Origin: a virus
Taxonomy: Duplodnaviria; Heunggongvirae; Uroviricota; Caudoviricetes
Reading direction: 5' to 3' (one strand)
DNA: 48,088 nucleotides
Virus record (IMG/VR): IMGVR_UViG_2844443253_000007
Shown: positions 30,340 through 32,609 of the stretch, piece after piece
How positions within the stretch are numbered: position 1 is the first letter of the stretch
How the letters are laid out: each line of letters opens with the position of its first letter
Notes under the pieces: generated by a model
The model's input: only the letters and a program-made list of their open reading frames with translations
Told to the model about the DNA's origin: nothing
The model's database searches: none
Translations under genes and position numbers: made by a program

Positions 30340-32609
30340 GTGTGCCCGGAGTTCAGGGCGGGCATGGATGCTTAAATGAACCGCGAGTCTGTCTGGAATA
30401 TTGAACCGGTAACTCACGATGAGAAACCCAACAATCCCACCGGGTGTGACGGTGGAGAACCTGAGCGGCAGTGACCTGCGGCATGCCCGCAGGGTGATGT
30501 AACCCGCTGACAACGGGGATTGAGGCGAGATCACTAAGCCGAGATGATCCTCAAGGTTAAGTACTGAAAGGCTGAAGAACATGAACCCGTTAATCCGCCT
30601 CTGTGGGTTGAAAACGTCACCACGGCCTACGTGATCTGACAGGCCGTGCAGGAGGAACTGGCAGTGATACGTAAGCACTGCCGGTCGAAGGTGTTTTGAC
30701 ATGTATGCGAAACACCGGGGCAGCAGCGTCTATCACACTTGCGTTGCTGACTTCTGCCAACTTGCGGCAAGCAAGGATAAAGAGTGCGACGGGCAGCCTC
30801 CTCAGTATGCCTGAGTCCAGGCAGGTAAACCGGGGAAGGTCAGCGACGGATGTTAAGGGGGCATGGCTCCGATGACGCGCTGGCTGGCGGAGCTTCCGTA
30901 GTAGTCCGCGATGGGGAAAGCCCATTACATGGCGAAGGGAAGCAGTTTGAATGTGTTTGCGACGTGAATTAACTGACCTAACGAGGTGAAGACCTTTGAT
31001 AATCAGCGAAATGCAACGCAAGCTTGCCACATGGGCAGCCACCGATCCGTCCCTACGGATTCAACGGCTGCTGCGTCTGATAACACAACCAGAATGGCTG
31101 GCTGAAGCGGCGCGGATCACGCTTTCATCAAAGGGGGCCCATACCCCCGGCGTTGATGGCGTGAACAAAACAATGCTACAGGCCAGACTGGCTGTTGAGC
31201 TGCAAATCCTCAGGGATGAATTACTCTCAGGCCACTACCAGCCCTTGCCCGCCAGACGGGTTTACATCCCTAAAAGCAACGGCAAACTGCGACCACTGGG
31301 TATCCCCGCGTTGCGGGATCGTATTGTTCAGCGGGCCATGCTGATGGCGATGGAGCCGATATGGGAGAGTGATTTTCATACGCTCTCATATGGCTTCCGG
31401 CCTGAGCGCAGTGTCCACCACGCGATCCGCACGGTGAAATTACAGCTCACAGACTGTGGTGAAACCCGGGGACGCTGGGTGATTGAAGGCGACCTGTCCA
31501 GTTACTTCGACACCGTACATCATCGACTGCTGATGAAGGCTGTACGCCGCAGGATCAGTGACGCACGTTTCATGACTCTGCTGTGGAAAACCATCAAGGC
31601 GGGACATATCGATGTCGGTCTCTTTCGGGCGGCCAGTGAAGGTGTGCCACAGGGCGGTGTTATATCGCCGCTATTATCGAACATCATGCTGAATGAGTTC
31701 GATCAATACCTGCATGAGCGCTACCTGAGCGGGAAAGCCAGAAAAGATCGGTGGTACTGGAATAACAGTATCCAACGGGGCCGAAGTACGGCGGTCAGAG
31801 AAAACTGGCAGTGGAAACCCGCGGTGGCGTACTGCCGCTATGCCGATGATTTTGTCCTCATCGTCAAAGGCACCAAAGCACAGGCGGAAGCCATCAGGGA
31901 GGAGTGTCGGGGTGTGCTCGAAGGCAGTCTGAAACTCAGGCTGAACATGGATAAGACTAAAATCACCCATGTTAATGACGGCTTTATCTTTCTGGGGCAC
32001 AGGATCATTCGCAAACGCAGTCGTTATGGCGAGATGCGAGTGGTCTCAACGATCCCGCAGGAGAAAGCCAGAAACTTCGCCGCATCGCTGACAGCACTGT
32101 TATCAGGCAACTACAGTGAAAGCAAAGTCGATATGGCTGAACAACTCAACCGAAAACTGAAAGGCTGGGCCATGTTCTATCAGTTCGTTGATTTTAAGGC
32201 CAAAGTCTTCAGTTATATCGACCGTGTCGTGTTCTGGAAGCTGGCTCACTGGCTGGCCCGCAAATACCGTACAGGTATCGCTTCCCTGATGAGGTGGTGG
32301 TGTAAATCACCGAAACCGGGTCAGAGCAAAACGTGGGTTTTATTTGGTAAAACCAATCACGGCAAGCTCAGCGGCGAAATACTGTACCGGTTGGTGGGGC
32401 AAGGCAAGAAGCTGTTCCGCTGGCGGCTACCCGAAGGTAATCCCTATCTGAGGACGGAGACCAGAAACACGTATACATCGCGCTTTACAGAAGTGGCAAT
32501 GGCGTTCGCCAGCATTTAAATGGAGAGCCGGATGCGCTGAAAGGTGCACGTCCGGTTCGGGGAGGAGAGGCAGGGAAATAGTCCGACTACGCCCTGCCTC
32601 TTACTCTAC
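30340..32609 (+). mobile_element. Group II intron with intron-encoded reverse transcriptase/maturase
   Basis: 5' GTGTG start, 3' ...AC end, domain V-like hairpin GAGCCGGATGCGCTGAAAGGTGCACGTCCGGTTC near 3' end, internal RT ORF. Confidence 0.85.
30996..32519 (+). CDS. Group II intron reverse transcriptase/maturase
   Basis: 507 aa; RT motifs including YADD in YCRYADDFVLIV; maturase-like C-terminus. Confidence 0.9.
   Translation: MIISEMQRKLATWAATDPSLRIQRLLRLITQPEWLAEAARITLSSKGAHTPGVDGVNKTMLQARLAVELQILRDELLSGHYQPLPARRVYIPKSNGKLRPLGIPALRDRIVQRAMLMAMEPIWESDFHTLSYGFRPERSVHHAIRTVKLQLTDCGETRGRWVIEGDLSSYFDTVHHRLLMKAVRRRISDARFMTLLWKTIKAGHIDVGLFRAASEGVPQGGVISPLLSNIMLNEFDQYLHERYLSGKARKDRWYWNNSIQRGRSTAVRENWQWKPAVAYCRYADDFVLIVKGTKAQAEAIREECRGVLEGSLKLRLNMDKTKITHVNDGFIFLGHRIIRKRSRYGEMRVVSTIPQEKARNFAASLTALLSGNYSESKVDMAEQLNRKLKGWAMFYQFVDFKAKVFSYIDRVVFWKLAHWLARKYRTGIASLMRWWCKSPKPGQSKTWVLFGKTNHGKLSGEILYRLVGQGKKLFRWRLPEGNPYLRTETRNTYTSRFTEVAMAFASI

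Follow-up and report, generated by a model that had tools for sequence, protein, structure and literature searches.

The bacterial group II intron E.c.I4 homes into the insertion sequences IS629, IS911, ISEc16 and ISEc31 (Leclercq & Cordaux 2012), and fragments of it have been recorded even in K-12 strains (the same study, Table 3). Dai & Zimmerly 2002 is the source cited for E.c.I4 and S.f.I1 in PMC3522654, and a paper on Shigella flexneri 1c mentions a group II intron within an IS911 (PMC4924310). The ORFs of E.c.I4 and S.f.I1 are 99% identical and belong to class A, one of the ORF classes without an En domain, which in 2013 comprised only three near-identical members (Toro & Martinez-Abarca, PMC3552965); the review of Zimmerly & Semper 2015 makes no mention of class A or of IS targets. 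The best-studied example of a similar way of life is RmInt1 in ISRm2011-2, the experimental model for introns residing in IS transposase genes (PMC3035460, PMC4238363). We analysed a viral DNA record of 48,088 nucleotides (IMGVR_UViG_2844443253_000007), called here the window, and found that positions 30340-32609 very probably represent a full-length copy of the known mobile intron E.c.I4 (= S.f.I1), lying at its documented homing site in IS911 and using the splicing and retrohoming mechanism proposed below.

Insertion point in IS911 and genomic setting

The window is an IS-riddled prophage remnant with sitABCD, a Rac-like recE/kil region and an IpaH effector gene, and the presence of the latter therefore assigns it to a Shigella or EIEC chromosome. 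The exact neighbourhood and arrangement of the window were absent from the complete E. coli genomes searched. The IS911::intron unit has disrupted a minus-strand phage gene, phrog_1366 (33097-34059), with distant similarity to Sak4, a short remnant of which gene, at 29420-29577, adjoins an IS629-type element. The interrupted IS911 spans 29578 (TGAAGTGGCAC...) to 33096 with both inverted repeats intact. Its 5' exon holds the left inverted repeat, orfA, the frameshift heptamer and OrfAB codons 1-230, the last of which encode ...WCGDVTY, and its 3' exon holds the remainder of the OrfAB DDE core and the right inverted repeat.

A preliminary description of this DNA had proposed a 2270-bp insertion with GTGTG and AC ends, placed exactly between IS911 nucleotides 762 and 763 and in sense orientation within orfB, and each of these points was confirmed. 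IS911 breaks off at nucleotide 762 (30339) and resumes at nucleotide 763 (32610), the intron lies on the same strand as orfA/orfB, and the exon junction is in frame (...VWCGDVTY/IWTGKRW...). The intron begins at 30340 with GTGTGCCCGG and ends at 32609 with ...CTCTTACTCTAC, showing the GUGYG 5' boundary (GUGUG, 30340-30344) as well as the AY 3' boundary (...CUAC). Among 28 aligned relatives, GUGYG starts were present in 26 and GUACG in the remaining two, with an AC end in 28/28. After deletion of the intron, the two halves of IS911 were co-linear and identical, without gaps, to the uninterrupted IS911 at 16005-17253 over 1249/1249 nt. Relative to the empty site, the intron has thus been inserted with single-base precision, with neither target duplication nor deletion, as expected for reverse splicing.

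The intron is located directly 3' of the W-C-G-D-V-T-Y codons. The Asp residue of this motif aligns with the start of the Pfam rve match and corresponds to the first catalytic Asp of rve/DDE cores. Conceptual splicing gave an open OrfAB frame of 389 aa, identical to that of the intact IS911, with the rve integrase-core domain extending across the junction, in agreement with the earlier proposal that splicing would restore an intact transposase mRNA. In RefSeq, the label "ltrA: group II intron reverse transcriptase/maturase" is flanked on either side by half of a pseudogene named "IS3 family transposase"; these orfB halves are better annotated as one gene split by an intron than as a decayed IS.

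Table 1. Positions of the intron, its domains, its host IS911 and the neighbouring sites in the window.
Feature	Position	Strand	Description
Group II intron, assigned to E.c.I4 (bacterial class A)	30340..32609	+	2270 nt, GUGUG...CUAC
Ribozyme domain I	30345..30834	+	closing helix intron 6-10 / 491-495; compensatory changes in most helices
Candidate EBS1 UGUGGGU (intron 263-269)	30602..30608	+	complementarity scans
Ribozyme domain II	30835..30888	+	helices 22-24 98-100% paired, compensatory changes
Ribozyme domain III	30892..30943	+	helices 25-26 99% paired, 7 compensatory pairs
Domain IVa stem-loop	30964..31014	+	helices 27-29; Shine-Dalgarno GAGGUG and ORF start
Intron-encoded protein, 507 aa from TTG	30996..32519	+	RT with YADD and maturase X domain
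Domain V, 34 nt	32525..32558	+	AGC triad, 2-nt bulge, GAAA tetraloop; Rfam alignment
Domain VI	32560..32607	+	consensus fold; bulged branch-point A at 32603
Left copy of 3-bp target-site duplication ACC, IS911::intron unit	29575..29577	.	flank reads ...CCATACC/TGAAGTGG
IS911 5' part (nt 1-762), 5' exon	29578..30339	+	100% identical to 16005-16766
orfA	29650-29952	+	HTH_Tnp_1 match in OrfA
Frameshift heptamer A AAA AAG	29901-29907	+	upstream of intron
IS911 3' part (nt 763-1249), 3' exon	32610..33096	+	100% identical to 16767-17253
Right copy of 3-bp target-site duplication ACC, IS911::intron unit	33097..33099	.	flank reads CCACTTCA/ACCTTTG
Uninterrupted IS911, TSD TCT	16005..17253	+	internal control for precise insertion
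Empty E.c.I4 homing site, neighbouring IS629-type element	28622..28641	-	GATTTTACTTACG/TCAGCAC

Ribozyme fold and intron-encoded protein

Relatives of the intron protein were collected from species-representative genomes, giving 311 confirmed stretches, and 80 loci with 66-100% amino acid identity were kept. The comparative fold was built with RNAalifold and pair counts on the 5' 700 nt of 28 distinct relatives. The consensus for domains DI to DIVa contained 166 pairs in 29 helices. Standard pairs occupied 95.8% of the cells, compared to 36-42% after sliding the 3' partners by 1-3 columns, and compensatory pairs were found at 102 of the 166 positions compared to 35-46 when slid. The covariation score was 0.483 against about 0.09, and the observed values were reached by 0/500 shuffles. 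The Shine-Dalgarno sequence GAGGUG of DIVa was invariant, and GAGGTGAAGACCTTTGATAATCAG nearly so, in the alignment of the relatives.

At the other end of the intron, the domain V-like hairpin noted in the preliminary description corresponded to an end-to-end match of the Rfam model Intron_gpII (RF00029, DV and DVI; gathering score 40) at 32523-32609 on the plus strand, with 64.9 bits and an E-value of 1.3e-10, which ends at the intron 3' end. Domain V showed 14 pairs, two of them with a compensatory change, one of these in 12 sequences. In the DV/DVI fold obtained from the 3' 95 nt of the intron, 10 of the 32 pairs were compensatory in the 28 relatives, and the bulged A at 32603, located 7 nt from the 3' splice site, was invariant in 28/28. 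The Rfam D1-D4 models gave no match in the intron at a permissive E-value, only DV/DVI being hit, and MFE folding of the 5' 671 nt as a single sequence gave little information (z = -1.62), the shape not being a canonical one. The domain I-VI fold that the preliminary description had put forward as a check was thus obtained by covariation for DI-DIVa, and for DV/DVI with the invariant bulged A.

The sole long ORF within the intron begins in the DIVa stem-loop, and the RefSeq protein (ltrA, WP_001189111.1) starts at the ATG at 31011, giving 502 aa. As anticipated for a 507-aa RT/maturase, the protein exhibited a Pfam RVT_1 match at residues 91-337 (1.5e-34) including YADD, a Pfam GIIM match corresponding to the maturase X domain at residues 361-426 (1.3e-10), and an NCBIfam TIGR04416 (group_II_RT_mat) match of 340.9 bits for a cutoff of 300 bits. 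All group II domains appeared on folding, and the RT and X domains are complete. In Pfam and NCBIfam profile searches of the 507-aa protein, no endonuclease/HNH domain was found and nothing was detected beyond GIIM.

We considered also that the RT might belong to another RT system (retron, DRT or diversity-generating retroelement), the intron-like ends being coincidental. The NCBIfam matches to retron and Drt RTs that would suggest it were weak, with 54, 51 and 48 bits, in each case well short of the cutoff, and an identity as retron or DRT defence RT was rejected on these scores. The protein exceeds the curated TIGR04416 cutoff and has a GIIM domain, DV/DVI lie at the exact 3' end of the intron, the six-domain fold has covariation support, and the insertion is base-precise relative to the empty site; this reading is already refuted and keeps practically no probability. 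The agreement with every point of the preliminary observation is far beyond chance, and the assignment of 30340-32609 as a complete, sense-oriented group II intron within IS911 orfB is fully supported.

Identity, relatives and target sites

The preliminary description had also recommended a comparison with known E. coli and Shigella introns, and this led to the classification as E.c.I4. The intron differs by 5 substitutions in 2270 nt (99.8% identity) from the copy of strain E24377A at NC_009801 4848623-4850893, which has IS911-type flanks like those found here and is named E.c.I4-2b (Leclercq & Cordaux 2012, Table S3). In the bacterial group II intron database, introns with more than 95% identity receive the same name (rule quoted in PMC3552965); the 99.8% nucleotide identity found here lies above this value and refers to the copy designated E.c.I4-2b. 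The intron protein, without D/En, fits bacterial class A, the class given for E.c.I4 in PMC3552965.

An E.c.I4 match was present in 2669 of 5426 complete E. coli genomes, at up to 20 places per genome, with 2722 records reaching at least 99% identity in the same set. The 80-nt IS911/intron junction was found in 2096 E. coli genomes and the empty IS911 site in 2830, and copies 100% identical to the present intron, annotated ltrA, occur in many E. coli genomes. No evidence contradicting the identification as E.c.I4 was found in the analysis. E.c.I4 in IS911 is thus real, correctly described and already known, an ordinary and well documented case, and the importance of the locus is small, as one more catalogued intron at a catalogued site.

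Complementarity scans pointed tentatively to UGUGGGU as EBS1. This candidate would pair with positions -7 to -1 of the IS911 5' exon (ACCUAUA) with two G.U pairs, and is also complementary, via G.U pairs, to the IS629 site ACUUACG; it gives no covariation signal because the targets are too conserved. For EBS2, exact and relaxed complementarity scans on the two target types gave nothing decisive. In a family-wide scan, GUGAUGU (intron 155-161) was complementary to exon positions -12 to -6 in most relatives. The exon core GAUAUC, which bears on this complementarity, is palindromic, and the same intron segment is equally complementary to intron 275-282, a pairing kept in 94.9% with zero compensatory changes. 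Judged by pairing potential, intron 155-161 may act as EBS2, or may instead form half of a tertiary contact within the intron.

Both flanks were available for 36 relatives of the intron. In 34 of them the intron is sense-oriented and occupies an identical codon phase of a DDE transposase gene, directly after a motif of the W-x-x-D-x-T-Y type, which in some copies carries a single substitution. The other two are L009, which lies in a decayed copy (AADVTD), and L044; one of these exceptions is located in an IS66 transposase. Most of the hosts are IS3-type rve genes, three are rve + HTH_32 genes (IS481-like), and one is an IS6-family gene (DDE_Tnp_IS240, WRMDETY/I). The relatives span many phyla, from Enterobacteria to Nitrospirales, Desulfarculaceae, Rhodothermales and Acidimicrobiales MAGs.

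Class A is now broadly distributed, which extends the known picture of E.c.I4 but may already be published, and the positional rule for class A introns may likewise have been noted in the literature. Positional conservation at the W-x-x-D-x-T-Y codons across IS3, IS481-like and IS6 elements is observed. An attenuator role of class A introns is conjecture, as is the idea that a G/U-rich EBS1 tolerating synonymous transitions would explain the broad range of host IS. Taken as one statement, that the class A lineage consists of specialists of these codons which are also splicing-dependent attenuators, and not neutral lodgers, of their host IS, the proposal is quite unlikely. The tracking of one motif across IS families and phyla could interest those who study how retroelements choose durable targets.

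Proposed mechanism, fate of IS911 and comparison with known systems

In the mechanism that we propose, the IS911 promoter would drive synthesis of an orfAB mRNA that contains the intron, and the intron protein, translated from the DIVa start, would bind the intron RNA and promote lariat splicing via the bulged A at 32603. The lariat-protein particle would then reverse-splice into DNA carrying the same motif in other IS3-type transposase genes. The cDNA would probably be primed by the nascent strand at the replication fork, a route that has been described for other En-less introns and is proposed here because the intron protein has no endonuclease domain. Residence in an IS would spare host genes and give the intron a ride on a mobile element, and this "safe haven" view of an intron in an IS is the standard, textbook reading (PMC7306698).

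The function of IS911 may be kept via splicing. OrfA, encoded upstream of the intron, could come from unspliced RNA, and full-length OrfAB requires splicing. In the unspliced RNA the frame stops at 30402-30404, and translation would give a truncated OrfAB of 251 aa (230 aa followed by 21 intron-encoded residues) which keeps the HTH region; of the DDE triad it retains the first residue alone, as the 3' exon encodes the other Asp and the Glu. The sole quantitative precedent points in the opposite direction: in vivo, RmInt1 spliced from ISRm2011-2 with an efficiency of 0.07%, and its authors concluded that the intron limits the spread of its host IS (PMC3035460, PMC4238363), which would argue against IS911 staying functional. 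It is possible, but on balance doubtful, that the intron silences or attenuates its host IS, splicing and exon ligation being inefficient and little OrfAB being made; OrfA and the truncated OrfAB, with a DNA-binding N-terminus and an incomplete DDE triad, could in addition compete at the IS ends. The 251-aa product and the restraint inferred for ISRm2011-2 point in this direction, and the same possibility was raised by Waldern et al. 2020. Against it, the splicing data come from RmInt1, the ends of the IS911::intron unit are intact and flanked by a 3-bp duplication, and transposase could be provided by the intact IS911 copies of this genome. Such attenuation is compatible with a full-length E.c.I4 that splices and retrohomes as proposed, and does not exclude it.

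The present mobility of the intron in the source genome is uncertain. Besides the IS629-type site listed in Table 1, the E.c.I4 homing site of the uninterrupted IS911 (16766/16767, same orientation) is empty, and the locus offers a natural example of an occupied and an identical empty homing site 13 kb apart. The same IS629 site as at 28622-28641 holds the intron in E. coli EC958 and in S. flexneri SFBU1023. In S. flexneri 301, a single E.c.I4 copy was reported despite 42 available sites (Leclercq & Cordaux 2012), and the empty sites of the window match this low Shigella occupancy. These two empty sites, both less than 14 kb away and one belonging to an IS911 that is 100% identical and has the same orientation, together with the very low occupancy (1 copy for 42 sites), would fit an immobile passenger that arrived in an IS911 transposed or recombined into the prophage and no longer retrohomes. 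We regard this as unlikely, given that the intron is 100% identical to copies which are multi-copy elsewhere (5 places in M217 and in AR_0149, and up to 20 per genome), that its ORF and all ribozyme domains are intact, and that zero differences between the two IS911 copies argue for recent events.

The identification as E.c.I4, which remains the preferred one, is borne out by the comparison with the described systems. E.c.I4/S.f.I1 and the present intron share a length of 2270-2271 nt, the IS911 and IS629 homing positions and an En-less RT/maturase, with no substantive difference, the present intron being one further genomic copy. With RmInt1 of Sinorhizobium meliloti it shares the En-less organisation and the sense insertion in an IS transposase gene, but RmInt1, for which both splicing efficiency and mobility have been measured, differs by its ORF class (D, here A), the IS family and the target sequence. 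Ll.LtrB of Lactococcus lactis is likewise a mobile intron with a domain IV RT/maturase and the same general scheme of splicing and retrohoming. Its protein LtrA contains both a DNA-binding and an HNH endonuclease domain and uses the cleaved strand of the target for priming; both domains are missing from the present intron protein, and the RefSeq name ltrA, derived from LtrA of Ll.LtrB, is generic.

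Insertion sites and start codon of the E.c.I4 relatives

Relatives of E.c.I4, the class A group II intron carried by IS911, were found at loci L003-L082 with a protein identity of 66-100% and are spread over many phyla. They are inserted after W-x-x-D-x-T-Y, in one common codon phase, and the genes that host them encode DDE transposases from the IS3, IS481-like and IS6 families (for example L026:564-2840, L014:1830-4099 and L058:1823-4105); one exception, L044, is located in an IS66 transposase. This placement looks like a class-wide target rule. The loci L005, L007, L010, L041, L049 and L063 are whole contigs of draft genomes (2271-2288 nt) of exactly intron length, as is typical when an assembly collapses a multi-copy repeat.

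The RefSeq annotation of ltrA, the RT/maturase gene, starts at the ATG at 31011 (502 aa) and not at the TTG at 30996 (507 aa). The 507-aa TTG start looks more likely, since in L038, L055, L044 and L047 the ATG is replaced by CTG or CTA while the TTG is retained, L053 has an ATG where the window has the TTG at 30996, and this start is preceded, at a distance of 7 nt, by an invariant GAGGUG.

Unoccupied homing sites and the interrupted phage gene

A second IS911 showed 100% identity across 1249 bp with the intron-bearing one. Its E.c.I4 homing site (16766/16767) is empty, despite a sequence and orientation matching the occupied IS911. An orphan IS911 left end, a 61-bp identical fragment, was also present at 41209-41269 (+) beside other sequence. 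The homing site of the IS629-type element adjoining the intron-bearing IS911 (28622-28641) is likewise unoccupied; orfB of this element looks frameshifted, because it is split into two overlapping ORFs (28686-29042 and 28156-28824).

The unit formed by IS911 and its intron splits a phage gene, phrog_1366 with a weak Sak4-like ssDNA-annealing match, into pieces at 33097-34059 (-) and 29420-29577 (-). The first is a 321-aa ORF whose stop codon is provided by the IS end.

Prophage remnants, cargo and IS load

The two isrK + C4 antisense RNA modules are inverted relative to each other and about 29 kb apart, and an exact direct repeat of at least 300 nt is found at 21537-21836 and 41734-42033; both observations suggest either that the window holds two prophage remnants related to each other or that an IS has mediated a rearrangement. 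The IS density across the window is very high, IS911 and IS629 adding to the IS3-family element with a 272-aa orfB, IS1 and IS2. The IpaH gene, CssrB, sitABCD, the tRNA cluster and sok are cargo that degraded lambdoid prophages carry in a Shigella-type chromosome.

Features of the window discussed in the text
Feature	Position	Strand	Remark
IS2	2151-3069, 37957-38875		two copies
sok antitoxin RNA	7819-7993
isrK + C4 module, copy 1	10940-11141	+
isrK + C4 module, copy 2	39889-40077	-
IS3-family element, 272-aa orfB	e.g. 11244-12464, 18547-19452, 34360-35580, 46336-47556		four or five copies
Four-tRNA cluster	13226-13533	+
Second IS911	16005-17253	+	no intron; 3-bp duplication TCT
IS1	e.g. 17779-18531, 27000-27752, 44857-45609		three or four copies
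sitABCD	22479-25928	-	iron/manganese transporter
IS629-type element	~28150-29419	-	adjoins IS911
ALIL pseudoknot	28968-29084		IS629-type element
orfA	29039-29365		IS629-type element
IpaH-family gene	42658-44370	-	T3SS effector
CssrB	44499-44681	+	Shigella sRNA
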